From contig JAUZTB010000062.1 in assembly GCA_034780895.1 (NCBI GenBank), forward strand, positions 9,920,045 through 9,984,044: 64,000 nt of DNA. Direction: 5' to 3'. Under the pieces are notes generated by a model. That model was not told the DNA's origin and ran no database searches. It saw nothing but the letters and a program-made list of their open reading frames with translations. Source of the stretch: Rhynchobatus australiae. Its lineage: Eukaryota. Of the stretch, positions 2,025-64,000 are shown in pieces (within the stretch, counting starts at the first letter, position 1; each line of letters starts with the position of its first letter). Position numbers and translations under genes: made by a program.

Positions 2025-2103
2025 CTAATGCTTCTTTGTTGAAGAAACTTTCTTCTTTCTTGCTGCCAGCATTTCATAGAAAGGGTCTCTGCTGATTGCA
2101 GCC
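2025..2103 (-). CDS. CYTH1: CYTH1 last coding exon (79 nt to stop): AAISRDPFYEMLAARKKKVSSTKKH*
   Basis: Acceptor cttgcAG at 2104-05, TAG at 2025-2027; C-terminal helix and polybasic tail. Confidence 0.97.
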
Positions 2104-5414: not shown

Positions 5415-5569
5415 TTAATACATTTTATCCATTCATCTTTCTCCTCTGGGGTTGGTGCAGATATCCTGTAAACTGTGTGACTTCCTTCTACCACTCGCCC
5501 ATCAGCCTCAGTCTTGCAGGCCTTAATAAACTGGTCTTTGTTATCCGGAATGTAGAGCTCAAAGCAATT
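5415..5569 (-). CDS. CYTH1: CYTH1 exon 13 (155 nt): [51 protein letters not shown](K)
   Basis: Acceptor tttcAG, donor GTGAGT; PH beta6/beta7 insertion [15 protein letters not shown]. Confidence 0.97.
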
Positions 5570-8068: not shown

Positions 8069-8140
8069 TGGCTTTTTTGAGTCCTCTACTTCTCGGATGC
8101 TGAGGTTTTCAAGTGGAATGATTCCTCTGGGTTCTTTGTC
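8069..8140 (-). CDS. CYTH1: CYTH1 exon 12 (72 nt): DKEPRGIIPLENLSIREVEDSKKP
   Basis: Acceptor tttcacAG, donor GTAAGT; peptide visible in ORF 8060..8308. Confidence 0.97.
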
Positions 8141-10270: not shown

Positions 10271-11228
10271 CTTCTGCCAAACGTCCCCTCCATCCTCACT
10301 ACACACCAACTAAGAACAACATCTACACTTCAACTCCACTGTGAAATCACCAAAGTTCCAAGTGCCATCCAGTTCTTGCGGATTTATGGACGCAAGCTCC
10401 TGGTTCCTCTCCGATGATGCAAGTGCTCCACTTGCCACCTGCCTGAAGTCTGGTAGTAGTTAACATCCACCCCATTGTCAAGCACCGCAACATTAAAGGG
10501 CAAAGGGTAAGCTATTGAACCTGACTAGTAGAAGTGAGCTGTAACTCAAATCAGAACATGCGCCTTTGGGAGAGAAGAAGAATAATTGCTCAGTTTTTTT
10601 CTGAGATTATCAGCATTGTAAACTTCTCTGCATTAAATCTGATTTTAGGTAACTAACTTCAGGATCCAATCAAAGCAATTATTGTCTCGTTTCATCCAGA
10701 ATTGTCTAGTGCCAAAAGGGTCTATTGTCTAAATAGGGTCATTGATATAGCTGCAAAATAAATAGAAAAAATAAAGCAACCCTGCATTGGGATTCTCTGT
10801 TTTAATCAGAGTTTAGCTGTATTAACACATCTTACATCTGCAATCAGCCTTACATTGTCCTCATTTTACACTCACATTAAAGGAGTAGCCACTTCAGTGA
10901 ATAATGCCTAAACTATCATTAATCAATGCTTTCTGAGAGGGGAGTACCTAGAAACAGTTAAAAAGCTCTTTCAATTATTCTGAATATTTGTATGGTAGTT
11001 GCTTCATATTTCAGTTGATCTCGGTGATATTTGGGGGGTGATTCAAAACTTTGCACTGCCTGTGCTGAATTGTTCTTCNNNNNNNNNNNNNNNNNNNNNN
11101 NCATCAACCAAAACCTGATGGCAGTACATGGCAATGGCCCAAATTTTCATCCACTTCTTAAGAAAAACAGAATATAATTTAGAGTAAAGGGCGAGTAGAA
11201 TTCTGAAAACTTAACAGCCCTAACTTAC

Positions 11229-11305
11229 CGTGGTGTATTCAAAGTAGTACAAGCAGTTGTCAGTCAGAATAAACCAACGTCGTTTCCACGTTTTCACTCT
11301 TCCAC
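11229..11305 (-). CDS. CYTH1: CYTH1 exon 11 (77 nt): (G)[25 protein letters not shown]
   Basis: Acceptor ctacAG, donor GTAAGT; PH phosphoinositide-binding motif KTWKRRWF. Confidence 0.97.
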
Positions 11306-14300
11306 CTGTAGTTTGACAAATGTGTATTTGGCAGGAAGAAAATAAAGAGAAAACGCAAAAGGTTCACAAGTATCCCATTAAGCCCGAGGCACAGCAGAGC
11401 CTTTTGACTGTGTCTGTCTCCATAAAATGTAGGTAGAATTATCATTTGTCCAGTCACAAAATTCTCCATGCAATTTTGCCATCATCGCCAATTCAAAAAA
11501 ATTTTAATTTTCTGTGCCTGGGAGCTACGAATTTAAGTGTGTTATTTGCTGATCAAATAATGAAGAATATTGTGGAAGACCTGGAGAATGACACACAACA
11601 AGGCAGTGCTTGGAGAAGGTAGCATAGAATAAAGTAGTATGTTTTACACACAAATACAACACCACATGCCACTGATAGGATGCACATCATACTGAACGTC
11701 AAGGCTTCTTCTACAATATTGCTATCAGAATGAGGCGAGTTTTATCTGCATAAGGAAAGGCAAGACATGAATTATGAACTGCTTAGAATGGATTAAAGAA
11801 TCAAAATATGGTTAGTGAAAATAGGAAAAAAATGATGATTGCAGAGCATTTCAAAGTGAGAGATCAGGTTTGCACCTTAAAAATATTAGGAAAAAAATAC
11901 ATTTGTTTTATTTATGTTAACATGATCCAATTAGCTCAAAGATGCTTTAGGGCCAAGTGAACTAAGAATTGAATGCTTTACAAATCACACTCCCCAAAAC
12001 CATATCACTTGCCTAGTTTCTGTTTGAACATCACTAAGATTTGACTTTCTTTGAAGATCAAACAGATAAGAGAAAAAAACTAGAACGGGGAAGAAAGGAA
12101 GCCATTTTATGATTGCGACTAACAGGGAATCAACACTAGCTCATTAGCAACAATAAATACTTTATCTTATTAGCTCTCAGCTGACATCTTAGTTGAGTGC
12201 AGAGCATAAGAGAATGTGATGAGATCCATAATGGTAATCTGTTGCACCTACTAGAGCAGGATAACTTGGAAGGGGTTGTCTAGAAGCAGTACATAAGAAA
12301 TAAGTATAGGACTACCGAGCCAGAGTAATAATTTAAAATAAAACTCTGCCTTTAAAACATCCACTAAAATGACATAAGATCACACAATTGGCCTTGATGC
12401 GAATATGATACAAATAAACCAGCTTCAAGTGGATATTCAGATGATTTAGTCCATTTCCTGCAAGGCACACTACAGTATAACATTGTATACACACTTTACT
12501 CCAGTCACATTCTGAAAGAAAGCCATTTAAAGTTGAGAAATTTACATCAAGTAAATTCAAAAGGAAGCATTGATTAATCAGTAATTTTTTTAAAAATCAA
12601 TTATTCGTTTAAACATAATGTTAATTGGATTCAGGTGAATTAATTTTGAAAAGATATGCATTTTATCAAGGACTAGACCAAAATCAACACTGCAGTATAA
12701 AATTTACTGTACAACTACTGGGTCATGGGATTAAACAGGATCATTGCAACTTTTGAATGAACAAATCATCTCCTGAAATAATTGAAGGGACATCAATGTC
12801 AGAGCGCCAGTCGGTCTCCCCAGCAAAACCCTTCTTGTGCAGTTCAACAAAGAGTATTGGTCTACTCCTAATATAAAAGCATGCAAAGCAGTTAGATGTT
12901 TAAAAATAATTTGTTTATCAGAGCTTGCCTCTTGGAATTGTTCAGAAAGGAAATTCCTACGTTTAAGCGGTTGCACAGTACTTGGTGACTAGCGCTACCA
13001 TCTGGACAACTAATTGAATAACAGGAAGCAACAAAACTGATATTTTCTCCCCCACTAATTTGTTTTAGGAGCATTAAAGCCCAAAGGAGCAGCAATTTCC
13101 AGGAGCACAAATGTTGCTTATAATGAATGGAAAGATCTTTGAAGTTTTTTCTCCATTAAATAATATTTGAATAGTTAAAGATCTTTGTTCCCTTTATTGA
13201 AAAAAAAAGTATCTTTTCTTGCACACTGCTCAAATCCATTATAACACTGGTTTTATTCTGCCATACCTACTGCCCTGTTTAAAATAAAACTTACACAGGA
13301 AAATTGAGTGGTACGTGGAACTGCTAACATACTTGTGTACTGTGTACAAAATAGCACAGCGTGGATCTGGTCTGATGTTCTACACAATGATTTTTCAATT
13401 GCAATCAGGTCATCTATATAAAAGTTAATCACAAAGGGGGAAGGAAGGACAAGCCAACATGCTATTCCTCACTAACGTACATTATTAGTTGAGGCCTGAA
13501 AATAACATAAGCTAGCGTAAAAGATGGCAAAAATGTCTCATGTAGAAATCTGTGGATCCAAACTTTAATGACAGAATTCTAAACTTACTTACTTTAGTTA
13601 ATTTTGCTACGTTGTACACAACACTGTGACTGTGTTTTCTGTACTGAACTTTTCTTTTAATAGTTGCGTTAATTTCTAAGAAAGTGAGCAGCTATGTTTT
13701 CCTATATCTCCCTTTATAAATGTTTCTGTAAAACACATGCCTCCTNNNNNNNNNNNNNNNNNNNNNNNNNNNNNNNNNNNNNNNNNNNNNNNNNNNNNNN
13801 NNNNNNNNNNNNNNNNNNNNNNNNNNNNNNNNNNNNNNNNNNNNNNNNNNNNNNNNNNNNNNNNNNNNNNNNNNNNNNNNNNNNNNNNNNNNNNNNNNNN
13901 NNNNNNNNNNNNNNNNNNNNNNNNNNNNNNNNNNNNNNNNNNNNNNNNNNNNNNNNNNNNNNNNNNNNNNNNNNNNNNNNNNNNNNNNNNNNNNNNNNNN
14001 NNNNNNNNNNNNNNNNNNNNNNNNNNNNNNNNNNNNNNNNNNNNNNNNNNNNNNNNNNNNNNNNNNNNNNNNNNNNNNNNNNNNNNNNNNNNNNNNNNNN
14101 NNNNNNNNNNNNNNNNNNNNNNNNNNNNNNNNNNNNNNNNNNNNNNNNNNNNNNNNNNNNNNNNNNNNNNNNNNNNNNNNNNNNNNNNNNNNNNNNNNNN
14201 NNNNNNNNNNNNNNNNNNNNNNNNNNNNNNNNNNNNNNNNNNNNNNNNNNNNNNNNNNNNNNNNNNNNNNNNNNNNNNNNNNNNNNNNNNNNNNNNNNNN

Positions 14301-14476
14301 NNNNNNNNNNNNNNNNNNNNNNNNNNNNNNNNNNNNNNNNNNNNNNNNNNNNNNNNNNNNNNNNNNNNNNNNNNNNNNNNNNNNNNNNNNNNNNNNNNNN
14401 NNNNNNNNNNNNNNNNNNNNNNNNNNNNNNNNNNNNNNNNNNNNNNNNNNNNNNNNNNNNNNNNNNNNNNNNNNNN

Positions 14477-14790
14477 CCAGTTCGGGGAGGGGGAGAGGGA
14501 GAGGGTGGAGGTAGAGCCAGAGGCTGGAAGATGATGTGGAGACAACAAAGGGCTGCAGATTCTGGAACCTGATAAGTAAGGAAGGTGATGTGGAACCAGA
14601 TAAGGGAAGGATGATGGGCAGTTGGATCCACTGGGGAGGGGATAGAAAGCCCTGTGGGTTAAGTATGTAGGTGATAGGCAGATGGAACCAGGGGGATGTG
14701 AAAGCAACTGGGTAAATGGAGGCTGGGTGGGAGTTGGTTGGAAAGAAGGTGGGGGTATGAGAGAGCCTGAATGTATTAGGAGAAAGAAAG
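14477..14790. mobile_element. Penelope-derived purine-rich interspersed repeat
   Basis: agaggctggaagatgatgtggagacaacaaagggctgcagattctggaa is nearly the same as 35437-35490. Confidence 0.65.
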
Positions 14791-15524
14791 GAACACATGA
14801 GGCATAGTATGGTACTCCTAATACCACACACTGCAATATTCAAATTATAGTCAGTGATTTTGTAAAAGAGAAAATATGGAATCTGTACATTTACTTGTGA
14901 AGAGACATGGTGTTGATAGCTATTCTGTTTCTGCAACACTGTTAAACTATGCAATCAAAAAAACTATTGCAAGGTTTTTTAAAATACAAAATTAGAACTA
15001 AAGATAGGATATTTTTATCTTTGGAAATAATTAATGTCAAATCAGATGAATCGGAAACTGTTANNNNNNNNNNNNNNNNNNNNNNNNNNNNNNNNNNNNN
15101 NNNNNNNNNNNNNNNNNNNNNNNNNNNNNNNNNNNNNNNNNNNNNNNNNNNNNNNNNNNNNNNGTTAGAGAATGTGTTCTTATTATGAAGTTATTTCTCA
15201 CTGCATGTACATGTTAACTAAATGTAATATTTATGCAAGCATTCACTAGTAATGTTTAACAATGACTGGGAAAAAAAAATCAAAAGTGAAAGATAAACTT
15301 AATTTTCTTAATGAGGTCTTCTGCACAGTTAAAAATCATGCAACTAAATTCAGAACAACACCAAATTACAGATTAATTTGTAATTCTGTGTTTTCAAATA
15401 TAATTTAATCATGTAGCACAAGGAGACTATTTTGTTCAATGTGTCTGTGCCTGCTTTTTGCAGGAGCTAGGCAAATGGACCCATTCCTCTGATTTTACCA
15501 CATATGCACTTCATAAGTTTTTGC

Positions 15525-15745
15525 TGCTTTTGGGATGTGGATGGACAGGAGGGAGAAGGGTGGGATGTGGACTAGTTGCCCTTATCTATCGGCACTGTTA
15601 AGGTGATGGTAGACTTTCTCTTTGACCTGCTGCAATCCTTTTGGTGAAGGTGTTTCAGCAATGATGTTATGTATGGAACTTCAGGATATTAACCCAGTGA
15701 CACAAGTTATGACAATACATGACCGTCATGATGGTATATGGCTCA
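15525..15745 (-). mobile_element. 3' end fragment of an ancient chondrichthyan LINE family
   Basis: aaggtgatggtag...ctgcaatcc...ttcaggatattaacccagtgac pattern recognised by eye; highly diverged. Confidence 0.4.
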
Positions 15746-16674
15746 GATTATGAAGGAAATGATATTAACTACCTGAACTTATCTAACAATTAAAATTATA
15801 AAACAATAACCAATACTGAAGATATGAAACAGTCTTGAGTTCTGGCAAGTATATACACATATATTTTTAAAATTTTAAAATCATCCTCAGCTAACCAGTG
15901 AATAAAATCTGAAAACATATGAAAGAATGATTTTTGAAAGTTACTTTTAACTCACTGGAAACATAAGGAATCTGTCCTAATTTCTACAGAATGTTCATCC
16001 ATCCTTTCAAAGGTAAATGGAACACACACAATTTCACATTTCACAATATTAAAATCTTTTGTTAAATTTCAAGAGTCAAGCTTTAGCTTTTAATCACACT
16101 TGTAAGAAGTCCCATTTACCTTTACTACTGCAGGCACCAGGTTTTCCACTTATGAACACTTAGGATATGAAAATCAGTAGGACACTGCAAAAGCAACTGT
16201 CCCTGTAGGACGAACGCCACAGATTGATCACCAAAAAAAGCAAAACAGCAGCACAGTGGAAAACTGTTAAATGCATAATGCTTCTACAAACTTTTTTTTG
16301 TAATGCTATCAATATTAATAAGTTTGTTACAAAAATGTTTAGTTCATTATCCAAGGGTAAATAATGTAGGAATACTTTAACAAATATGAATTATTAGCTC
16401 AATATTAGATTGGGGATTAGAAGGTGTATATACCACAACATTATTTTGGGCATTCCACTTTGAGTCCAATTAGTATATGTGTTTCTGTTTTATTAAGTTT
16501 ATATTTACATTTATGTATTTAAGAGTGATCCACTGTACTGCTACCTTAAGCTCACACGTAGCAAAGAGCTAACAAACACCCGCTATTGAAAGCAGCACAC
16601 CTCTACCACCAGCTGTAAGACAAAGACCAGCAGCACCCTGGGCACAATTAGCTACATGTCAGTGTGGTACATAC

Positions 16675-16677
16675 CTC
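16675..16677 (-). CDS. CYTH1: CYTH1 exon 10, 3-nt alternatively spliced microexon (GAG) adding one Gly to the PH beta1/beta2 loop
   Basis: Minus strand reads ctctctttccttatacacacAG-GAG-GTATGT, i.e. pyrimidine tract, acceptor, GAG, strong donor, in the intron between exons 9 and 11. Inclusion gives LKL-GGG-RVK; skipping gives LKL-GG-RVK, as known for mammalian cytohesins. Confidence 0.85.
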
Positions 16678-18724
16678 CTGTGTGTATAAGGAAAGAGAGC
16701 CAGTCATGTAACAACCAAACGGGAAGGAAAGAAAATTAAAAAGAAAAACAAAATTAATTTTAGAAATTAACCCTTTGAGTACTAGAATTGCAGAAGTGAC
16801 TTGATAAACCGACTTTGCTTTAAAATGAGAGCATTATATATAATTTCTTTTCCCTCTATTTTGAATTTTAACTGGAAAAGCATTTTGAACACCCAGATTT
16901 TTATTCAAAGTTTCAAACTCATCTACTGTTTTCAGCTTCTTTAAAAAATACTGAGGTGACTGACAATTTCAACATTGCTATTTCACACATGGAAGTTAAA
17001 AAAAAAGTTGCACATATATGAAATCCAATGTTGAGAATCCATTTTAAGAGTTTTTAAAAATGATCAGAAGGCCAATCTGTACATAATTAACAGATTATCT
17101 CACTAGTTATGGCAAGTTCCAGACTATTAACCCCTGGGAATTTCATAATTCAGCCTCTTTCCTTAGAAGAATTGTTCTAAATCATCCTTCACCCAAGAAG
17201 TGTCTTTTATTAATGAGTTTTATTTCCTTCTTTTTCATAGTTGCCCAATCTACTTCATGGTTAATCCAGCAACCAAATTAGCTTCTTACCCTTCTGGACC
17301 TCCCAATGACCAAAATCACTCAATGATTCAAAAAGAAAGAGATAAACAGGTTTATGATAGCCAGATTGAAATTAAGCCACCATGGGTCAGTACAATGTAC
17401 CAGTAGGAAAGTGGCCAACGTGACCAATAGGTTCCTTTGACCACCACATTAAGTTACTTTCACCCCCAATAGCTTTCGCTATTAAACACAAAAATGAAAA
17501 ATAGAGATTCTCTATATACTGATTTGAGATTGCATTCATGCCATCAGCATGCTAATATAGAGTTCAAATCGGGTACCAACAGCTTGTTCAACTTTATCAA
17601 CAATTGAAGTAAATGTAAAAGGAAAACAGATAAACTTCATTCATTTTCATTTCTGCTTTCTTTGGAGATGTCAGTTATTTTACAGTCTTAAATATAGTTA
17701 ATTCAAATAATAAATGTTGTCAGATTACTGAGTCACAACTGTATTCTGAGGTGCATTTCCTTCTTTTAATACTCTGTCTAAAATAAATTCTCCTGCCAGT
17801 TGAATGCAAAGATGCAAACTGGATCGCTCAAAGGGTTAAAGTGAATAAACAGAATTTTCAACATAGGTAGGTAAAAATGAAATTATTCAAATCTAATTAT
17901 CAAAATTATAACAAAATATTTTGTATGTACAACAATTAAAACTGGGCTGAAACGTTGAAACTGACTCACATTTTGAGATAGTCTGCACAAAAGCTTTCAC
18001 TTAACCCTTGGTTGTGAGAATTAACCCTTGCCACAAATGTCACACTGCTGTGCACCAATACACCTGTAAGATCATGTAACTTTTTCATTTAGTGACAACT
18101 ACCGAAGGGTACTATTAATGTTACTGTTGTTATTAGCAACGCTAATTAGCAACTAATTAGCAATGCTAATTAGTTATTAGCATTTAATGAAAGAACTGAT
18201 CTCTTTGTCAATGAATAAGTGCTATACTAAGATACATCCTCTCAAAAGGTGATAAATGAATAGTATTACTCCCAAAATGAACTGCAATTCTCCATCAAAC
18301 TTTTGTGTTGTGCTCCAGATCTGAGCTCCAAATGATGTACAAGCTACTCACTTTCCAATCCATATCAAGTCACATAGTTAATTACAGATTTCTAGCATAA
18401 AATATGAACTACTTGAAGTCTAGAAGCTTAAAATGGAGTTTTAATCTTCCACAAGTTAAAACTAATTCACTCAGCAGTAATATAATATTCAATATTTATG
18501 CTATGGAAATTGTAGAAAGATATTTACGCACAATATGGATTTTCTTTTCCTGGTGGGAGAAACCAGTTATGTGTGAATCAGGTGAAGCATGCGACTGTGC
18601 AAAACAGAATATATTTTCCACTTCTGTCAATCTGCACCAACATCAAATACTCCTAAGCCGGTGGGAGGTGAAGCAGAATTTGACCTGGAGCAGTTTTCTC
18701 TCCTGTTGCCCAGTCTAGGGAGGA

Positions 18725-18827
18725 TACAGGTGGTTCTGCTATAACATATGTTTCCATAATGTGAATTTTTTATAATGTGATTGATGGGTTAGGGAATACT
18801 ATTAGCATTACATAGACCACATTGTTT
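18725..18827 (-). mobile_element. Truncated copy of the TA-flanked MITE at 63639-63872
   Basis: tacaggtggttctgctataac...gatgggttagggaatactattagcattac aligns with the reverse complement of 63775-63874. Confidence 0.75.
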
Positions 18828-18859
18828 GCTATTAGGCATTGACAAAGACACTAACTCTG

Positions 18860-20460
18860 GATACAAAGTCCAGGGGACTGATGTCTAAACTGGGAGAGCT
18901 GTCGGACAATCAAGACAAGCATCAGCCTGCTGTTCCCTCCCATCTCCCTTTGCTTAACTGTGACTGCAATCATTCTAAAATGGGATAGGCTCACAACCGG
19001 TTCAGCATTTTAAAACCTAGCATCCCTGAGACTCCATGGACCACCAGCAGTAGTAGAATAAATGTACACGATCACAATCTGTAACCTCATGGTCCAGCGC
19101 ATCTTTCACTCTACCACTGCTACCAAGCTAGGAGATCAAACCCAGATCAACAAGGAATGCAGAAGTTCATGCTGGGAGCTGCACCAGCAATACCTGAAGG
19201 TGAGGTGCCAACCTAGTGAAGCAGCCACATAGGACTACATGTGTGCTAAACATCATGCAATAAACAGTGTTAAGCAATCTCATAACCAATGGAACCGATC
19301 AAAACTCTGCAATCCAGTTGGTAATGGACAACTAACCAGTTAATGGAAGAAGATCCAAGAACATTCCCATCCTCAGTGATGGTGGGGCCTCGTACAAGAA
19401 GGCAAGGCTGAAGCATTCATAACCACATTCAGCAAGAAGTCCCTGCTCCCGAGGTCCCACCAAAACAAAAAAGTCTTCAGGTCACATGTTGTCAAGAAAT
19501 GGTTGAGAACACTGGATGCAGCAAAGCCTAAAGAACCAGATAATACCCCAGCCTTCATACTAAAGACCTGTACCCCACAGCAATGTGCCTCCAGCAAAGC
19601 AGATCAAGTAAAATTACGAAAAGGATTTCAATCCAACAACATGGAAAATTGCCTATGTATGTCCTGTTCATAAAAAGCAGGACAAGTCCAGTCAGCTAAC
19701 TTCTTACTGCCCAGTCTAGTGTCAACCATCGGCCAAGTGGTGATCATCGACTATGCTGTAAAGGGCACTTACCCACCAATAACCTGCTCACCAATACCAA
19801 TTTGGGTTTTACCAGGACCAATCACAGTGATTCTTATCACAGCCTTGATCCAAGCAAGGATCAAACAGCTAAATTCCAGAGATGAGTGCCATTGTTTTTG
19901 ATTGCATGGCAGCATCTGACCATGTGGCATCAAGGAGCCCTGACAAAACTAAAGGTAATGGGCATCAAGGGAAAACATTTCAAACAGTGGAACAATATTT
20001 TAAACAAAAATAGATGATTGTGGTTTTTGGAGGTCATCTCAGCCACAGGACATTGCAGCAGGAGTCCCTCGGGGTGGTGTCCTCCGCCCTACCATCCTCA
20101 GCTGCTTCATCAGTGAAACTCCTTCCATCAAATCATTCACATCTCCCCAGGAAATGAGTGCATGACCTAGACTGCATCCAAGCATGCCCAGTATATTGCA
20201 AATAACAGGTCCACCACAAAACTGCCAGACCTGACCATTGCCAACAAGCCGGTTCAGCAACCAAGAGTGTCTAACCACCTTCCTTTGACAATTGCTGACA
20301 TTACCATTGCCAGATCCTCCACCATCAGAACCTAAGTGTCACCATTGACCGTAAAATCAATTAGACAACCACGTAACACTGCAGTCACAACAGCAGGTCA
20401 GAGGCTGAGTATCCTGCAATGAGCGACTCACCCGCTCATATCCCAAAGGGTCTCCACCAC
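18860..20460 (+). mobile_element. Decayed LINE ORF2 (CR1/L2 superclade, family distinct from the other CR1 copies)
   Basis: RT motif QDIAAGVPRGGVLRPTILSCFISE at about 20046-20120 (cf. GVPQGSVLGP.LF..FIND), plus AYVCPVHKKQDKS and SDHVWHQG-like remnants. Confidence 0.8.
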
Positions 20461-20749
20461 TTTAGAAGAGTGACTTCCCTTCCCCTTTGACTCCTAACTC
20501 TTTGCCCAACAATTGTCATAAGATGAATGCAGAANNNNNNNNNNNNNNNNCTTGTGTAACACTACGTAATATCAGCAAGACTGGGTTCCACCACTGGACA
20601 CAATATGGGGTCCATTAACAAGTGAGCTGACTGATTTAGCTCTCTGAATCTCTCAGTAAGTCCCGTCTTTCAATGCTTAGCTGCACGTGCACAGGAATGC
20701 CAGCAGTTCAATGTGGAATCGCTGGCAATTATCCTCATGCAGCAATGAC

Positions 20750-21140
20750 ACAAATACTAGCATATCTGAAGCACCTTTCACCATCTGTGCACATCCTAAA
20801 ATGCTTTCCAGATGAAAGAAGAATGTTTCTTTTGTAGCACATTCATTGCTGTAACATAGGAAATGTGGCAAACAATTTGCACACAGAAATGTGATAATAA
20901 CCAAATAATCTATTTATTTGATTAAGGGATACATGTTTGCCAGAACACTGGGGCAAATTCCCTGTTGTTCTTCAAAATAGTGCACTATCTCAATTGTGCC
21001 CACCCTAAGTGAGTGGTCTTAGTCTAATATTTCACATATAAAAACTGCACTTCCAACAGCCCAGCATTCCCTTGATACTGGATTTTTGTGCTCAACTTTC
21101 GGGAGGCTGGAACTCACAAATGTCTGGACTCAGAGGCCAC
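20750..21140 (-). mobile_element. DeuSINE (SacSINE1-like)
   Basis: ccctgttgttcttcaaaatagtgc...cttccaacagcccagcattccc...gatttttgtgctcaa...gactcagaggc matches the reverse of the Deu-domain SINE layout as I recall it. Confidence 0.7.
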
Positions 21141-21240
21141 NNNNNNNNNNNNNNNNNNNNNNNNNNNNNNNNNNNNNNNNNNNNNNNNNNNNNNNNNNNN
21201 NNNNNNNNNNNNNNNNNNNNNNNNNNNNNNNNNNNNNNNN

Positions 21241-21397
21241 TACGTCTTTGGAATGTGGGAGGAAACCGGAGCACCTGAAGGAAACCCACGCAGACACGGG
21301 AGAATGTACAAACTCCTTACAGGCAGCGGCGGGAATCGCACCCGGGTCGCTGGCGCTGTAATAGCGTCGTGCTAACCACTACGCAACCGTGCCGCCC
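21241..21397 (-). mobile_element. tRNA-derived V-SINE (HE1-like), 5' part
   Basis: Minus strand: gggcggcacggttgcgTAGTGGTTAGc (A box), GGTGCGATTCCC (B box variant), V-domain tgcgtgggtttcc...ctccggtttcctcccaca. Confidence 0.85.
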
Positions 21398-24300
21398 TTA
21401 AGACATAAATTAATTGAAAATAATATAAATACAGTTCTGATCATTTCTTTCGACTTAAGACTTGGACCATGTGCTCTATGTTACTTTATCATAATGAACA
21501 TTAAATAATTTAAATTTAGAACTAAAATAACTCTTTAATTATCCTTTTACTACTTTACCATTTAAAGTTAGAAAAACAAATCCATAAGGTACCTTTAAAT
21601 CTAAAACACTTCTAATTACATTATTTTATTCAGGGTAATATTTTAGTGCTTTACAAGTGTCAATCATAAACTTTTTCAAAATAATGAAGTTTGTTGGCCA
21701 TAAAAGGAATAGATATTGGATATTAATACCAAAACATTCCCTGGTTTGTATCTGATATTTACTTTTTAATTTTTTACTGCCAATGTGCAGCAACATATTT
21801 ATGAATGATTATGCACACGGCTTGTATTTCAGTTTAAATTTCATATAATGGGATAAAAAAATTGTTTTTTCTGGTAGAGACAGTTCTTTTAAATTTAAGC
21901 TGGATCAATGATTATACGTAACCAATGACTGCATGCAAATAGTCCACAGGTCCATTTTCATCTTCACTCACTCAATGATACTTAATGTCCAAGATACTCT
22001 CACAGTGTTAATTTTTCTGACTACGGTAATGTGGAATTGTTCATGTGGATTTTCCACAGATCTCACCTCAAAGTACGGTTTGAAATCAAATCCAGATACT
22101 AGAAGTTAACAGCTAATGTATTATGGGCAATAGGTCGCTGAACTCTTGGCTTCACTTTTTAGATAAATTAAAAGAATTATACAAATCAATCCCACCCTTC
22201 CAAGACATTCTTTTAATGAATTTCAATTCAAACTCATATCTGCATGAGAAAAAAAATTAAATGGTTAAAATTACATCATAAATCTACGGTATATAGACAC
22301 ATAGGAATGATTATTTTGTATTAAAATAGCTCTCAGGTGTATTATGCATTAATGACTGCAAGTTATAGTACCCAGATGTTAGAACTCCAATTTACATAGC
22401 TAGATCTTATCACTAATTCAAATCATGCATTGCTTTAAACCTTTGGGGGAGAAATTTACATCAGGTTGCTTATACTAAACACACAAGAAAGTAATAGCTT
22501 TGCATTGTATTGAGCTTTTGAGCTTAATGGGCCCAAATTTCAGAGACGGAGTAAAACAAACAGCTGCTATTATATGTTTAGTGTGAGCAACATGAGTGGT
22601 TTCTCCTGCAAAGGAAAAATGACCTTAGAATCAGAATAACCCCTTTTAATTCCAAAGCAGAACTATAGAATCTATTCCAAATAATTATGGATAGAAGGTC
22701 TACTCAAAGCTGATTGGAAGCTTGTAATGATTGAAAGTTTTGAGCTTTAATTAACACATGTGATATTAACAGAAGATCACTTTATATGTCAGTACAGCTT
22801 TCCACTGTGTACCATTANNNNNNNNNNNNNNNNNNNNNNNNNNNNNNNNNNNNNNNNNNNNNNNNNNNNNNNNNNNNNNNNNNNNNNNNNNNNNNNNNNN
22901 NNNNNNNNNNNNNNNNNCCATTATAATAGTCAGTAGTCTCTCTTTATGTAATGAATTCATATCTTCATTTAATCAGAGTTCAGAGGAATAAAATATAAAT
23001 GCAATGGGCAATAGTTTGCTAAACTCTTAGCTTCACTTTTTAGATAAATTAAAGGAATTAATTATGCAAGAATTTCATTTAATGGAAAAAAATGGCATTT
23101 CAAACCCTCAATTAATTACATAAAACATTTTCAAAAAGTGCAAATGTATTTCAACCAAGACAGCTTTCTTTGTAAATGCTTATCCTGACAAATCTGTGGT
23201 TTAATAATTGATTATTGTGAAATTCCTGTTGAATAATTAAATAATTTTTCAATACAATAAAAAGCAGTTTAGACAGTTTTGGTGATATTTGTAGCACAGG
23301 ATGTATTTGATTAGAAATGAGATTAAGCAGCAATGGACATTTCATGGAGGAAGAACAATGCAGAGAGAAATGGCTCATAATGAATGTCAAATGTACTCCG
23401 AAGAATGAAGGATAATTACTAAAGTGCTCAGCAAATTTCAAAACAAAATTGATCAGCAGGTTTTAATGTTTGAAGCCCTAGACCTTCAACTATTAAAATT
23501 GTGCAATATAATTGGTTTCTTAGTATTTGTTAAGCAAATGGACAAATCAATCGGCTTACAAATTTGACTTTGAGATTCCTTTTAATTTACTAGTCAACCT
23601 CCAGTGGCATTGCGGAAAGTGAAGGCTAATTTTAGGTTGGGAGGATTAAGGTATGTACATATTCATTCCAGAGCACACCATTCTCAATTTGAAGTCATTC
23701 ATTGTTATTTTATACAATATACTTTGATTTTGGTTATAGGTAAATGATAAAATGTACAGTAGTTTTCTGAAGATGCAAATAAAATGCAATGGCATCCTAT
23801 TTTTGTACTATTACAATTTTATAGTTGGAACAACAATCAGTTTCAGCTGGTTACAGCAATCCCTTTGCTACCATTGGAAATAAAACAGAATTCATTCAAG
23901 ACATTGATCTGCCAAAGAAATGTAAGATTAACTAGATTCGAGTCATTAAAACCTCAGTTATCTTTCAAGAACATACGATTTCTAATACCTGTAACATAGC
24001 TGAGCAGAGCTGCATTCCTACCAAAATTATTAACTGTGAATTTTAAACCAGGTTGTTACATAAAACAGTATTAATATATTATTTTGGAAACTGGGATGGA
24101 AAATCTATGAGAATCCACCAAGGAAAATTCCTTGAATTGCATTCATGATAAACTGGATGCTTAGCCTATGTTTTTCTAACATAGTTTACATGATTCATCT
24201 TTCCCCTGTTAAAATTATTGGAAAATAATTGTGTAAATCACTAGTTGCTTTTTTTTTAAAGAACTGGGGCTTAATATAAAAGGCATTTCAAATACATTAC

Positions 24301-24643
24301 TAAAATTTTGTTTGAAATATGTTGAGATGGTCAGGTTGAATTATTAATTATGCTAACATTTAAATGCCTCTATAACTACATAGAAAACTTTACAGTTTAT
24401 AATGCTTATTTATCCTTAAACCCTACTAAATTTCACATGTTTTTTCTTGCATTTACATTTTTAAGTTCTAACACTCAAAGAAGGATTCATGTTGTTCTTC
24501 ACCATAATTTACCTTCTTAAAGCTGCTTTCACAAAACATGCCAAAAATGTTTCACACTACAAAACTCAACTGATTCACAGTAATGAAAATAATTACAATT
24601 CCCAGGATTGGCGAGCAGCTAAAAATAAACCAAGTTAACTCAC

Positions 24644-24755
24644 CCAATTTGAGGAGCCAGCCCTCTCGATCTGGATTGAAGAATGTGTGGGTCAAGTCAT
24701 TGCCGTCATCTTCTGGAATTTTGAATGGTTCGTTCTTAATACTTTCATACAGATT
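24644..24755 (-). CDS. CYTH1: CYTH1 exon 9 (112 nt): [37 protein letters not shown](G), Sec7-PH linker and PH beta1
   Basis: Acceptor ttaacAG, donor GTGAGT; ends in phase 1. Confidence 0.97.
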
Positions 24756-25386
24756 CTGTTAACAAAGGTCAAAATTAGTTAATATTTCATTAGTAACTAT
24801 ATCATGGATAAAATAACAAAATAAATTTTTTACCATATTTGTAATTCTGTGAATATTTAAAACCCCAGCCACCATGGATTAGTTTATTTGGTTAGATTGC
24901 CATAATTGCTGACAAGTTTATTGTGCACCACCTGGATGTTGCAAGTCCTAATTCACTGGGTGGGAAAAGTAACTCTATTCAGAGAAACTAAGTTAAGGAT
25001 TTGAAAGCCAAATTTCAGAAAATGCAACAAAATTGAATTCAAATTAAATGAACTGTGGAAAAAAACAATAGGATCAGAAATGAGCAACAGCCGGAATATG
25101 TTCTTATTTTTATATAAAAGCTGTGTTTTAGAGATTAAACTCTGTAGTTTATACTTAATACAATAAAGTTATTCTTTATCTTTAACTAATGTTATTATTG
25201 TGATAATTTTTGCTCACTAACCAGTACATTTGAAGGAAAAAAACAAAGCCAGTATTTTTCTGGACCCGTTCAAGGAACAGGTGAGGTTTATGGAGCCACA
25301 GTAGTCACTAATTTCCCCTTTGAAAATGTGCATGCATTACTCAGTACAACTGTCACACAAACACAGCAAACAAATGTGATGCTTAC

Positions 25387-25535
25387 TCGTAGTAGTTCTT
25401 CAGGTAAGTCACCACCATCGTTTATTCCTCTGTTCATCAGAATGAACCTTTCCACAGTGGGTTTATCCTTAACATTTGGATTGTGTAGACTGGTATTCAG
25501 CATAATAATTGCAAAAGATAATACATAGCATGTAT
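25387..25535 (-). CDS. CYTH1: CYTH1 exon 8 (149 nt): (D)[49 protein letters not shown]
   Basis: Acceptor ctttgcAG, donor GTAAGC; Sec7 motif IMLNTSLHN; overlaps ORF 25288..25503. Confidence 0.97.
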
Positions 25536-25661
25536 CTGCAAAGAAAACTGGACTTCAGTTTTGTATGTTAGTAAAAGGTCCATATTGCCCCATTAGAAGA
25601 TTACTGAAAGTGCTGAAACATGAAATAAACAGAAATAAATAATTACATTAAAATATAAAAG

Positions 25662-25720
25662 CACAGACACACACACACACATATATATATACATAAAATA
25701 TACACACACATATATATATA
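25662..25720. repeat. Compound (CA)n/(TA)n microsatellite
   Basis: cacagacacacacacacacatatatatatacataaaatatacacacacatatatatata. Confidence 0.9.
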
Positions 25721-26093: not shown

Positions 26094-26206
26094 CAGTGGA
26101 TTGAAAAACTCCAGGATTACAGTGACAGTATCGCTGTGCAAAAGCTTCCATCATTCGGTCAATCTTCTGTGCCTCTCCAGGTAACCGGAAGCTCCACAAA
26201 AATTGC
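26094..26206 (-). CDS. CYTH1: CYTH1 exon 7 (113 nt): [37 protein letters not shown], catalytic glutamate finger
   Basis: Acceptor atcAG, donor GTAAGC; the FRLPGE Sec7 catalytic motif is intact. Confidence 0.97.
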
Positions 26207-26744
26207 CTGATATTTTTATATTATTTTAATAGAATTATTGAATTGCTAATATACAGATTCTAAATTTTAATATTTAGTTGTGAGATTGGAACCAGCATGC
26301 ATCCTTCATTCTGCATTAACACCAACATTTGTATAAGGGTACTGTGTGGCATTTTTCGGAATACAAGAAGCTACATTATTTATGTAGCTATGTCTGTGGA
26401 GTGTCTTCTGAAGCTGAGAGAAAATCTGTTCATTCAAAATATGTTTGGTTATACTAAATAGATCCTTATATCCAGCTCATTGGGAACATGTTCATCTTAT
26501 TTTATACATGCTATATAAATTNNNNNNNNNNTACGATCTATTAATCTACCATTGCATTTTACTCTAATGATATATTCAAATTTCTACTTGTTCAATTAAG
26601 AAGATCGATTTAAGTAATTACATAGAACACCAAAGCAAGCCTGCCATGTGCTAGTCTAGCAACCTGAACTTTCTTACATTCAGCTCAAAGTTGTGCTGGA
26701 GTTCCAAAGCTGCCAATCCCTCGCCGGTACCATATTTTCATACA

Positions 26745-28297: not shown

Positions 28298-28378
28298 CGC
28301 AAAGCCTGCACCAGATTTAAGTCTGTGAATTCATGAAGCTCCACAAAGGCATGGAGAACTTTGACATTGAATTCATCC
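28298..28378 (-). CDS. CYTH1: CYTH1 exon 6 (81 nt): [26 protein letters not shown](R)
   Basis: Acceptor cttgcAG, donor GTAAGA; Sec7 sequence. Confidence 0.96.
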
Positions 28379-31331: not shown

Positions 31332-31450
31332 CTCTCTCCGAGATAATCCCCAATTGCAGTCTTGTTTAGTCCCTCTCCTTTGTACAGAAACTGCGCAATA
31401 TCCTCTCGAGTATTCTTTAAAAGCTCATTTTCAATCAGGAATTGAATCCC
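31332..31450 (-). CDS. CYTH1: CYTH1 exon 5 (119 nt): [39 protein letters not shown](R)
   Basis: Acceptor gttacAG, donor GTAACA; Sec7 motif [13 protein letters not shown]. Confidence 0.96.
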
Positions 31451-34322: not shown

Positions 34323-34389
34323 CTTCTTGGGATCCATATTGAATTTCTTCCGGCCCATAGCCACTTGTTTATTCCGTTGCATATTTTTT
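34323..34389 (-). CDS. CYTH1: CYTH1 exon 4 (67 nt): KNMQRNKQVAMGRKKFNMDPKK, start of Sec7 domain
   Basis: Acceptor tttttcAG, donor GTGGGA; peptide also visible in ORF 34284..34469. Confidence 0.96.
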
Positions 34390-41841: not shown

Positions 41842-41906
41842 CTTTCTTCTGTTGAACCTAGGTTTTCAATCTCATTCGTAACCTCTGCTATCTCATCCTT
41901 CAATCG
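41842..41906 (-). CDS. CYTH1: CYTH1 exon 3 (65 nt): RLKDEIAEVTNEIENLGSTEE(R)
   Basis: Acceptor ttttacAG, donor GTAAGG; in frame with exon 2. Confidence 0.96.
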
Positions 41907-58573: not shown

Positions 58574-58656
58574 CTGAATGTCAGCCAAGAGCTCCTGCTT
58601 GCGTTGTCGGATGTTTTCTAGCTCTATCACTTCTTCTGGAGTCAGGTCCGCGGGCA
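58574..58656 (-). CDS. CYTH1: CYTH1 exon 2 (83 nt), coiled coil: (V)PADLTPEEVIELENIRQRKQELLADIQ
   Basis: Acceptor tttcAG at 58657-58, donor GTACGT at 58573; translation matches the cytohesin N-terminal coiled coil. Confidence 0.95.
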
Positions 58657-60819
58657 CTGAAAGTAAAGACATGAGTACAGTGAGCCGGCGAGATCACTAA
58701 TGCGAGCACAACTGCTGGTTGGCAAACCTCAGCTGTTCTGACCTTCAGTGTCACCTGACCCATGTTTAAACTAGTCAAGAGCTGCTTCACATGCTTCATG
58801 CCTTTCACTTCTCCCTCCCCAAACTGCTATTTAATTATTCAAAACTGCCTGAAGCATTAAGGCAGAACAGAATAATGCCAGAATTTTCCCCTCCTTTGGT
58901 TAATGCATGCATGTTCATGTATATTAAACTGTATCCTAACACGTAACATGCCATTTCCAATTTTTAAGTTAAAGTCTACTAAGTAGACACAAAGATTCCA
59001 CAGTTATAATTGAATCAAATTAACACAGCTATCGATGTGTATAATGAGATTCAGTTTCTAATTTCTATGTCATATTCAGTGCTGCCTTATCAGGCACCGT
59101 AAAGTATGTGGAACAGCATATGAAATTATAATCCAGTAACATCTGTGCTCTATTAAATCAGCACGGATGTAAAATGATAAACAAAACAGCTAAGCTCACA
59201 CCATGATTTCCCACATTATAAGATGCATTATTAATTCAAGATAACTACACACTGTAAAGATAAATGTTGAGATTTACTGCAGTTTCCTATACCTGTATCG
59301 TGTAAAAACAGGATCATGGTATCTTTTAAGTGAAGTCAATATTTTGGACACAGCAATGTAGCATTCAATGACAGAACCTACAACGAAACTTTTCACTGGT
59401 GAGTGCAATTTCTGGCCATTTACTTACCTAAAGGACCATCACATCTCACCAACCAACACTGGTACTCGCAGTGAGTTTTTATGAAGTCTTTTACTTGTGC
59501 ATGAGATCACTCATAGAACTGAGTTCTGGATCCCTCACAGATGTGATAAAACACTGCTTACATCTGTGGCAAATCCACAATATATGCTTCAGGGTACTCT
59601 GCATAAACGAAAGGCTGATGGTAGCTCAAAAATATTTCAGAAAACTGGATCTTTAATGTCGTCGTTTTAAAGGTCCTTTGCCTGAATAATTATCAAGTAA
59701 AATATTCAAGCTATTCATGCCCCAGAACACTTCCCCCCTCACATTCTGAGTGTGGTTCACATTCAGTTTTCCTGTATAGTTATCAGGAGGGTGCAAATAT
59801 CATTGCCCATTTTGTTTCGATTTTATACCATGACCCCAACTTTCCAGTTCCAGAGTAACAATCCACTGCTTGCTCAATCTACTACTTCCAAGAAAATGCA
59901 GCGAGGAACACTTCCCACTGTTACACCCTAACACTCTTCAGAAATATTCACTGAAGTTCCCATAATGACACAGCCTCAACATTAGTGTGATTTTCTGTTT
60001 TCACAGAAAAATGCAGACTAGTTAAAGAAAAAAACCTGATTTATAAATTATTTTCCACAACCATAGGACTCCCGAAGTATTTCAAGCTGTTGTAATGTGC
60101 GTGGGTTTTCATGAAGTCCTTCATTTGTACAAGACTCACAGACATGCATTATGGATTCTCTGCTGTTGCAACAAAATATTTCTTCCATCTACAGCAATCT
60201 ACAATGCACGTTTCAAAAATGCATACGGCAATGTGCCTTCAGTAAACTCCCACGAACAGCCAAGAATTTTTTTTTAAAAAATCGTTAATGGTAAATCATG
60301 ATATTGTTGTATTTTTTTGCAGGATCTATTAATATTCTCAAAACAATAAACACATAATGTTGCAATACTTCTCATGCTTTTGTCCTCAGACATGTAGGAT
60401 ACAACTGAATTGTTTGGATATCCTTGTCCCTGGTTTTACTCTCGGGGTCTGGGACTTGATTAGATAGATAACTTGGCATGGCAAAGGACTTAAAACATTA
60501 GAGAAATACTTGGAGCAGAATTAAGTAAATATTTAAAAATCATAACAAGCCAGTCCATCAGGAGCTTTGAAGCACATTAAAACTCTCAGTCATGCATATA
60601 ACCATTAACATAAGCATTCAGCCCAAAACCAAAAAAAATAGGTCATGGTACTGGCAGTGTGGCCCTAAGGCAAAAAAAATGCCAGAGCACTTTTTAGTAT
60701 AAAAAACAGTATTGAACAATATGGTGTGTGGAAGCTTTGTTAAAATATGACCATGGGTAAAATTACATGCATCTTTTTCCAGAAATATTTTCACTTCAGT
60801 CTGTTTTCATGAGAGTTCA

Positions 60820-62610
60820 ATAGATCAGTACAGCACAGGAACAGGCCCTTCGGCCCACAATATCTGTGCCAACCATGGTGCCAAATTCAATTANNNNNNN
60901 NNNNNNNNNNNNNNNCCATATCCCTTCATTCCCTGCACGTTCATCTGCCCTTCTAAATGCCTCTTAAACATCACTATCATGTCTCCACCCTGGCAGTGCA
61001 TCCCAGGCACCTACCTCCCTCTATCAAAAACTTGCCTCGCACATCTCCTTCAAACTTTTCCCCTCTCAGCTTAAAGCCATGTCCTCTTGTATTTCACATT
61101 TCCATCCTTGGAAAAAGACTCTATCTACCCTACCTATGCTGTCATAATTTTATAAACCTCTATCAGGTCTCCCCTCAGCCTCTAAAGCTCCAGATAAAAC
61201 AATCCAAGTTTGTCCAACCTCTCTAATCCAAGCACCATTCTGGTGAATCTCTTCTGTACCCTCTCCAAAACTCCACATCCTTCCTCTAACGCAGCAACCA
61301 GAATTGCACACAATACCCTACATGTGGCCTAACATTTTACAGCTGCAATGTAACTTATCAACTTTTATACACAATGCTCCAACCGATGAAGGCAAGCATG
61401 CCATTTGCTGCCTTTACTACCCTATCTACTTGTGTTGTGACTTTCAGGCAACAGTGGACCCCAAGATCCCTCCTAAGGGTCCTGCCATTTATTGTATACT
61501 TTCCCCTTATATTTGACCTCCCATATCCCCAACCTCACAATTATCTGGATTAAACTCTACCTGCCATTTCTCCGCCCATATCTCCAACTGATCTATATCT
61601 TGCTATGTTCTTTGATAACTTTCTTCACAATCCACAACTCCACCAATTTTTGTGTTGTCTACAAATTTACTAATCAGGCTATTTACATTTTCATCCAAAT
61701 CAGTTATATACATCACAGAGGTCCCGGCACTGATCCCTGTGGAACACCACTGGTCACAGACCTCCAGTCAGAATAACATCCCCACACTACCATCCTCTGG
61801 CTTGGTAAGGCAACTGCTCTGCTTGTGACTGCAGGAAACTGCAGAGAGTTGTGGACACAGCTCAGAACATCACGAAAACCAGTCTCCCCTCCATGGACTC
61901 TGTCTACACTTCTTGCTGCCTCAGTAAAGCAGCCAGCATAGTCAAAGACCCCACCCACCCAAACATTCTCTCTTCTCCCCTTTCCCATCGGGCAGGAGAT
62001 ACAAAAGCCCGAAAGCACATACCGCCAGGCTCAAGGACAGCTTCTATCCCACTGTTATAAGAGTATTGAATGGTCCCCTAGTATGATAAAAGGGACTCTT
62101 GACCTCACAATCTACCTCGTTATGACCTTGCACCTTATTGTCTACCTATACTGCACATTCTCTTTAGCTGTTACACTTTACATAGTGCACTGAAGTAGTA
62201 CAAAGTAAACAATAACAGAATGCAGAATAATGAATTGATCTGTATGAACGGTATGCAAGATAAGTTTTTTCCACTGTACCTCAGTACATGTGACAATAAT
62301 AAACCAAGTCTACGGCCAAGCCAATTTTGAGTCCAGACTACCAAGTCACTGTGGATTCCATGTGCCTTAATCTTCTGGATCATTTTACCATGAGGGACCT
62401 CAAAAGTTTTACTAAAGTCCCTGTGTACACATTCACTGCTCTTTCCTCATCAATCATCTTTGTTACCTCCTCAAAAACTCAAACATTCGTAAGATATAAC
62501 CAGCTCCGCACAAAACCATGCTGACTATCCCTAACAAGTCCATGCTTTTCCAAATGCAAGTAGGTCCTATCCCTAAGGATCCTCTCCAATAGCTTCCCAA
62601 CCACTGATTG
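60820..62610 (-). mobile_element. CR1-type LINE interrupted by a Rex1 insertion
   Basis: SDWRSVTSGVPQGSVPGP (ORF 61713..62018), KIKAHGI..DLVVWTQNWL, VVGKLLERILRDR..HLEKHGLVRDSQHGF. Confidence 0.9.
61798..62307 (+). mobile_element. Rex1/Babar-type LINE 3' fragment nested in CR1
   Basis: ggcttggtaaggcaactgctctgc through gtgacaataataaaccaa aligns with 7200-7840. Confidence 0.92.
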
Positions 62611-63594
62611 CAGTAGCCATGTTGCCCATAAAACAGCTAAATATTTAATAACCTTACAACCTACAAGTGCCAAGAGTTTAATTCAATAAAGAAGTTTCCT
62701 TGCTCTGAATGGTCCTCAGGAACTAGCGAGATGTACATTACTAATAAAAAGAGTTGTATTTCCAAATGGACAGCGATATCTGTACAAAATGACAAGCCAA
62801 TAGCATAATGCATGCAAATTGAAAGTGGCGAGTTAACTTGTCAGTCAAACCCTCTTGCCAATAAATCAATTTCTCCAGTTCTTGCCAATGGTAGTTTGAA
62901 CAGCTAACTGCTCTGAACATTGCACGTATCATCAGTTTTAGTAAAAATACTAAATATACTAAGCAAACATCATTAAGCAGAGGAGATGACACACAAAATA
63001 AAAAAATATACACTGTGGTGAAACCTGCCATTTTGTTGCTACTATGTTAACAAAGGAACTACTTAAAAAGTGTAGTAGACTAGAGAGAAACATTCTGATT
63101 CAGTATAGGGATAGCAGTATACCCCTGTATCCGAAGGTTGTTACCTTGGAGGAATATTATTTTGTAGGCTCCAAGTGAGTCACCATCATAGGCATGCTAA
63201 TTAAGAACTTGTTTGGAATGTTCCCAACCAGGCAAATTATTCATTCCCATGTGCCCCTTTTCAAACAAAAGTACATGATGCATCGTCTTAGACCAGAGTT
63301 ATGGATCTTCCCTTGAACAGCCAATATTTGAGGAATGTTATAAACTGCCCCCTTTTTAAAAGAAAATCCTGAGTCAGAGAAAAGCAGCTATTATCATTGT
63401 TATAAGCATTAATATTTTCAACATTTATATGATCCCTCGCATGTTCTAAATATTTCACAATGCTACAAATGCTCAGAGAGTCAGGAATTTTCTTTGGCCT
63501 ACAGGCAATTGTGCCCATTGTGCCTGCACCATTCTCCCAAAAGACTGTGCTAGTTCCCTGCAATTACCCTATACTATCCTAGTGAGAGAGAGCT

Positions 63595-64000
63595 ATGGAA
63601 TCATAGAGGCACACCCTGTCTACGCCAAGCATCAAGTACAGGTAGTTCTGCTACAACACAATAGTTATATTCCTAAGAAACCTCAGGGTTATGGAAAGTC
63701 ACATTATGGCAGAACAGGATGCAGCTGCTTTCAAAAGCACAGATTTCACACAGGTTTTCCCCGATCACACTATAACCAATGTGGCCTGCGTAATGCAAAT
63801 AGTGTTCCCTAATCCATCAGTCGTGTTACAACCAATATGCGTTGTGGAAACACGTTATAGCAAAACCACCTGTACCCATCTATACTAATCCCATTTACCA
63901 GCACTAAGTCTGTAGACTTTCTTTGCTCTGGCAATCCAAGTGCTCATCTTAATACTTCTTAAATGTTATGAGAGTCTGTGCCTCTACCACCTGCTCCGAC
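63595..64000 (-). mobile_element. CR1-type 3' UTR fragment, host of the MITE
   Basis: gccaagcatcaagTA...cccatctatactaatcccatttaccagcac...tgcctctaccacc is continuous once the MITE is removed. Confidence 0.65.
63639..63872. mobile_element. 234-bp MITE of the Tc1/mariner (pogo/Tigger-like) superfamily
   Basis: TA at 63637-38 and 63873-74; imperfect TIRs caggtagttctgctacaac and gttatagcaaaaccacctg; no coding capacity. Confidence 0.85.

Follow-up and report, generated by a model that had tools for sequence, protein, structure and literature searches.

Does the three-nucleotide exon that alters the lipid preference of mammalian CYTH1 also exist in cartilaginous fishes, and is it used there? Insertion of GAG differentiates the variants of mammalian CYTH1-3 according to the available parts of PMC9104363 and, in a repetition of the same statement, PMC6724607, while in the part of PMC6727740 at hand the di- and triglycine variants appear only in the reference list. 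The CYTH1 microexon is termed evolutionarily conserved in the accessible text of PMC6314551, where sharks are unmentioned. The window, by which we mean the whole 64,000-nt stretch of DNA analysed here, very probably contains this exon: a GAG that serves as a 3-nt microexon of cartilaginous-fish CYTH1, spliced in by relatives to give a three-glycine loop and likely skipped as well to give a two-glycine loop.

The gene that surrounds the GAG encodes a Sec7 and PH cytohesin of the CYTH1-3 type (tblastn, exon by exon), and in a 19-row tree without a CYTH4 row it is the sister of Cetorhinus CYTH1b (99/99) within the CYTH1 clade (100/98). Its product is identical to Cetorhinus maximus cytohesin-1b at 334/338 residues, to mouse CYTH1 at 325/338, and to CYTH2 and CYTH3 at 83-85%; from PH beta1 to the C-terminus, 132/136 residues are the same as in human CYTH1 and the four differences leave the loop untouched. 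Twelve further exons lie on the minus strand from 58656 to 2025 (Table 1), with AG/GT ends on all but the last, which closes at the stop. The exon upstream of the GAG (24755-24644) closes in phase 1, after a Leu codon. Joined without GAG, the 12 exons give 390 open codons and two loop glycines, and with GAG, 391 open codons and three. The two glycine counts agree with the preliminary description of this locus, which read GGG with GAG and GG without it in the PH beta1/beta2 loop. A single strict pattern for the first coding exon found no match in 58657-64000. The GAG is presumably exon 10 of CYTH1 by mammalian numbering, and numbering the three exons 9/10/11 presupposes that first exon, which was not found in the window.

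Table 1. Coordinates of the CYTH1 exons, the microexon and its splicing signals in the window.
Feature	Position	Strand	Basis
CYTH1 coding exon (coiled coil), first found in window	58574..58656	-	tblastn exon by exon; AG/GT ends and frame
CYTH1 coding exon (coiled coil)	41842..41906	-	tblastn; AG/GT ends and frame
CYTH1 coding exon (start of Sec7)	34323..34389	-	tblastn; AG/GT ends and frame
CYTH1 coding exon (Sec7)	31332..31450	-	tblastn; AG/GT ends and frame
CYTH1 coding exon (Sec7)	28298..28378	-	tblastn; AG/GT ends and frame
CYTH1 coding exon (Sec7, presumed catalytic-Glu motif)	26094..26206	-	tblastn; AG/GT ends and frame
CYTH1 coding exon (Sec7)	25387..25535	-	tblastn; frame; RNA contigs
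Upstream exon (end of Sec7-PH linker, PH beta1)	24644..24755	-	tblastn; frame; RNA-contig splice joint to 25387
Conserved intronic block around microexon	16526..16826		runs X21 and X1
Microexon acceptor: AG, pyrimidine tract, likely branch point	16678..16710	-	sequence; similar stretch in CYTH3 paralogue
3-nt GAG microexon; its inclusion puts one more Gly into the PH beta1/beta2 loop	16675..16677	-	sequence; +3 joints in runs X1 and X7; X1 contig; frame check
Microexon donor GTATGT	16669..16674	-	sequence; X1 contig reads through donor into intron
Downstream exon (rest of beta1/beta2 loop, beta2), start 11305	11229..11305	-	tblastn; frame; RNA-contig joints
CYTH1 coding exon (PH)	8069..8140	-	tblastn; AG/GT ends and frame
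CYTH1 coding exon (PH)	5415..5569	-	tblastn; AG/GT ends and frame
Last coding exon (C-terminal helix, polybasic tail, stop)	2025..2103	-	tblastn; frame

The source had been described as an apparent cartilaginous fish. Its sequences identify it as a cartilaginous fish and probably as an elasmobranch: Cetorhinus CYTH1b is the sister of the gene, and an exon of another cytohesin in the same genome gave 11 chondrichthyan matches out of 11, the best of them to Pristis (100% over 51 residues). Several features of the gene were observed in passing. The Sec7 exon starting at 26206, which we take to carry the catalytic Glu, has an A-rich acceptor (26207-26250, minus strand) with almost no pyrimidine tract, and Leucoraja model P0083 is without that exon. 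Beyond the last coding exon lies the 3' UTR, with AATAAA near 770 as a candidate poly(A) signal, and just past this likely signal, at 1-640 on the minus strand, is a broken reading frame that resembles ORF1 of a CR1-type LINE.

The CTC of the plus strand reads GAG on the minus strand, where a pyrimidine-rich acceptor ending in CAG stands on one side and the GTATGT donor on the other. Its distance is 7,966 nt to the upstream donor and 5,369 nt to the downstream acceptor, and it is the sole AG-GAG-GT on the minus strand of the intron at 24643..11306 (13,338 nt, of which 1,047 are N), so that AG-GAG-GTATGT within a 13.3-kb intron is as originally claimed. The bare 7-mer AGGAGGT is not rare, with 0.5 copies expected; of 200 second-order Markov simulations of the intron, about 40% contained it. 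The fuller pattern of acceptor, GAG and donor (pyrimidine before AG, plus a consensus-like donor) occurred in 0/200 simulations, and under a simple score of donor match plus pyrimidine content the GAG site ranked first among the 41 AG-NNN-GT sites of the intron. By consensus, the branch point of the acceptor is likely the TGAC whose A lies about 27 nt upstream; the next AG upstream is absent for about 95 nt.

The intronic sequence around the site is conserved. Run X21, from a related species (organism K), had no substitutions in the 301 nt that lie within 150 nt of the exon versus 19 in the other 300 nt of 16330-16930 (Fisher p = 1.4e-6), an interval with 21 differing letters, 19 of them listed by place. 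Run X1 had 1/153 substitutions in the block versus 14/156 outside (p = 7.5e-4), although X1 and X21 have most substitutions in common and are not independent. Run X20, with four changes, is too close to inform, and the more distant DNA run X24 gave two short unrelated matches that leave the site uncovered.

Evidence of use was sought in 24 candidate sequencing runs, none on record as RNA (18 guessed to be RNA, six of unknown kind), of which seven were compared. Four of the guessed-RNA runs, X1, X5, X7 and X11, represent four organisms and were compared over 11100-25700; their contigs come from close relatives of the window's own species. Three of the four, from organisms A, C and D, have contigs that run from exon to exon over the GT-AG intron at 24755-25387 and therefore represent spliced RNA. 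The joint of run X1 (11307-24643) omits 13,335 nt, which is the intron minus three, and corresponds to the form with the three additional bases (+3). Run X7 omits 13,340 nt but carries five letters in the gap, a net 13,335; they read K-L-G-G-G, again the +3 form. In run X11, 13,338 nt are omitted with no letters listed between, and the joint is marked 'between: not known'; this is probably the skipped form plus a synonymous Leu codon. The exons are uncovered in X5. The three-glycine mRNA is accordingly present in two of the four runs and the skipped form probable in one, with one lacking cover. The claim of inclusion and skipping in RNA stands for inclusion and is probable for skipping, in each case from contigs of relatives. 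Joint absence of inclusion and of AG-GAG-GT conservation had been named as fatal to the exon; inclusion was found as +3 contigs in two of four runs, and conservation was found in the flanks.

It could be argued that this lineage includes the exon, though genuine, almost constitutively, and so produces the three-glycine protein alone, with no functioning switch. Only the +3 form is found in X7 and in X1, which is the closest of the RNA runs; the acceptor, free of TGC, carries a good pyrimidine tract; and the upstream contig of X1 shows no branch where the skipped form would diverge, continuing unbranched four letters beyond, so that no skipped form is present in that assembly. Both isoforms were likewise not seen within any one of the four guessed-RNA runs. 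Contigs lose minor variants, however, and inclusion in human cell lines is 66-93% for CYTH1 (5-21% for CYTH3) in the available text of PMC6314551, the former being a range in which assemblers retain one form. The main X11 contig is probably the skipped form, and the 300-nt conserved block suggests regulation. We consider constitutive inclusion unlikely, and regulated switching within one species is proposed. The contig depths in X1, 169 upstream and 114 on the +3 joint, are not taken as an inclusion ratio. Two other stretches of the same intron drew attention in these runs: 21241-21400 is a short repeat, likely a SINE-type element, that each of the four RNA runs covers very deeply, and 11388-11715, just upstream of the downstream exon, is covered at low depth by contigs from organisms C and D (about 92-93% identity) and is possibly another conserved intronic stretch.

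A further X1 contig (334 nt, depth 3.2) bears on where the three bases come from. It aligns to 16370-16678, and its 24-nt loose end matches window positions 24645-24668 in 24/24 letters (by eye). It thus consists of the upstream exon, GAG and the downstream intron, and therefore represents a partly spliced molecule in which the AG of the microexon was used as acceptor. The upstream intron is removable first; this is one contig from one run and does not address the usual order. No intermediate with the downstream intron removed first was found among the joints listed.

A recursive splice site, at which a long intron is removed stepwise, has GT straight after AG and retains nothing in the mRNA. 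An intermediate with the upstream intron removed and an intron of 13 kb would both suit such a site, with GAG as a by-product. At this locus, three bases intervene between AG and GT and stay, being kept in mature RNA in two of the four runs; the in-frame Gly that they add has an effect that was measured in mammals, and a recursive site is very improbable. Scarcely tenable is the remaining proposal, that the three bases arise from a shifted donor or acceptor at one of the adjacent exons, with the intronic AG-GAG-GT a chance occurrence. The 7-mer alone does occur in about 40% of simulated introns, and a shifted non-canonical junction is one way to write the X1 joint. Three nucleotides into the intron, however, no GT is found, nor does an AG lie 3 nt before the acceptor, the last three bases of which would encode Ala and not Gly. 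Conservation of the flanks extends to other species and to CYTH3, and for organism A a shifted site is ruled out by the X1 contig, which joins the upstream exon directly to 16677.

For the microexon, the following course of splicing is proposed. The upstream intron may be removed first, after which GAG would end an exon of normal size with a usable GTATGT donor. Were the upstream donor paired instead with the acceptor at 11306, the microexon would be skipped, and the level of inclusion would be set by competition between the microexon acceptor and that at 11306. Most SRRM4-dependent microexons are reported to lose the downstream intron first in the available text of PMC10250204, and rapid upstream-first removal is reported for microexons in that of a 2026 preprint (PMC13174390); as far as these texts go, they are at odds on the usual order at SRRM4-dependent microexons. 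A naturally occurring intermediate from an exon that is among the shortest possible bears on this open question of splicing order around microexons.

A search of the same genome with each flanking exon gave three cytohesin loci, namely that of the window (C62), C127 and C80; a fourth locus was found for neither exon. The C-terminus of C127 is of CYTH3 type, and in the same intron (8,248 nt, 3,153 N) C127 holds one AG-GAG-GTACGT at G000:C127:3838672-3838674 (L009:6673-6675), a candidate site. The 40 nt upstream of it align to the CYTH1 site with a score of 33, compared with -1 to 20 for 12 other acceptors of the window's gene, and 5/5000 shuffles reach 33. When the flanks of the CYTH3 site are aligned to the whole CYTH1 intron, the best local alignment falls on the microexon. 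The branch-point and pyrimidine stretch is alike at the two sites. TGC motifs occur twice at the CYTH3 site, at -17 and -8, whereas the CYTH1 acceptor has none in its last 32 nt. A matching GAG site with a similar stretch in the CYTH3 paralogue indicates that the exon likely predates the CYTH1/CYTH3 duplication, which the GAG insertions of mammalian CYTH1-3 had implied before; on this comparison a single origin before the duplication is likely, and the cis-elements common to both sites favour it. No AG-GAG-GT site was found in the 1,992-nt intron of C80 (100 N), and proteins of its clade have two glycines in 45/49 cases, the other four being unreadable by the pattern. C80 (L008, G000:C80:4771000-4780999) belongs to a separate chondrichthyan clade with the database names cytohesin-1-, -2- or -3-like, and is perhaps the orthologue of CYTH4. 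At L012:7876-8030 (G000:C135:16998872-16999024) stands an isolated CYTH2-like PH exon that contains an in-frame stop, with no other cytohesin exon in the surrounding 40 kb (partly N); CYTH2 may have decayed or be missing from the assembly.

The same GAG bases, adding one Gly to the same loop of the same gene, constitute the mammalian CYTH1 microexon (available text of PMC6314551, with Ogasawara 2000 cited there); the present exon differs in being that of a cartilaginous fish, known here from sequence and from the RNA of relatives. The microexons of CYTH2 (ARNO) and CYTH3 (GRP1) represent the same mammalian insertion in the parts of these reports at hand, and the CYTH3 of this genome has the matching candidate site. 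CYTH3 differs from CYTH1 in its two TGC motifs and in the low inclusion of human CYTH3 in cell lines. Neural microexons that depend on SRRM3/4 are similar in length (3-27 nt), in preserving the frame and in their conserved flanks, but they have UGC close to the 3' splice site, which the CYTH1 site lacks (0 TGC in the last 32 nt), and the human CYTH1 exon is included in cell lines of non-neural type, as far as the available text reports. The Drosophila cytohesin Steppke has a diglycine loop and binds PIP3, and an engineered third Gly weakened PIP3 binding; triglycine is called a mammalian isoform in the accessible part of that report (PMC4640550).

For the human CYTH1 PH domain, the part of PMC6314551 at hand gives two Kd values for each headgroup: 0.033 uM with two glycines versus 3.03 uM with three for that of PIP3, and 21.05 uM with two versus 7.23 uM with three for that of PIP2. 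Because the loop is identical to that of human CYTH1, the same shift in lipid selectivity is likely in cartilaginous-fish CYTH1. By analogy with the mammalian protein, the two-glycine form would prefer PI(3,4,5)P3 and be drawn by PI3K output, and the three-glycine form would sit more broadly at the plasma membrane. Solved structures exist for close paralogues.

The use of the exon in cartilaginous relatives, together with the three-glycine form in bony vertebrates, dates the exon to before the split of bony and cartilaginous fishes, in agreement with the preliminary description. This date was already implied, because mammalian CYTH1, 2 and 3 share the GAG insertion and orthologues of CYTH1 and CYTH3 exist in cartilaginous fishes; the presence of the exon is expected from the mammalian paralogues and will not surprise a specialist. 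What is added is direct sequence and RNA support that a known one-residue lipid-specificity switch exon exists in cartilaginous fishes, and a correction to gene models with only the two-glycine form. VastDB reportedly includes the elephant shark. We found no literature naming this exon in a cartilaginous fish, and the Irimia 2014 supplements, VastDB or other comparative splicing tables may already list it. Three-glycine models occur among mammals, birds, reptiles, a frog and teleosts (30/324 stored proteins, with 66/324 unreadable by the pattern). None of the four named chondrichthyan CYTH1 or CYTH3 models (P0083, P0258, P0174, P0205) has three glycines, from 40/1553, 40/217 and 40/996 cluster members read and 15 of each listed, so that three-glycine models may exist among the rest; the named CYTH1 models P0083 and P0258 have two. 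In one lamprey cluster, 9/10 proteins have two glycines and 1/10 has Val-Gly-Gly.

A fuller history is offered tentatively, as possible but rather doubtful. The exon would have been invented once in an early vertebrate, with the branch point and pyrimidine tract still shared by CYTH1 and CYTH3, and control would then have split: the CYTH1 copy would be broadly included, UGC-free and spliced upstream-intron-first, the CYTH3 copy would be UGC-bearing and of the SRRM3/4 neural type, and CYTH4-like and possibly lamprey copies would be without the exon. Among the 324 stored proteins, eight have Ala-Gly-Gly or Val-Gly-Gly in the loop (e.g. P0074, P0063 and P0204); these are probably gene-prediction artefacts in which three bases from a neighbouring intron end replace the microexon.
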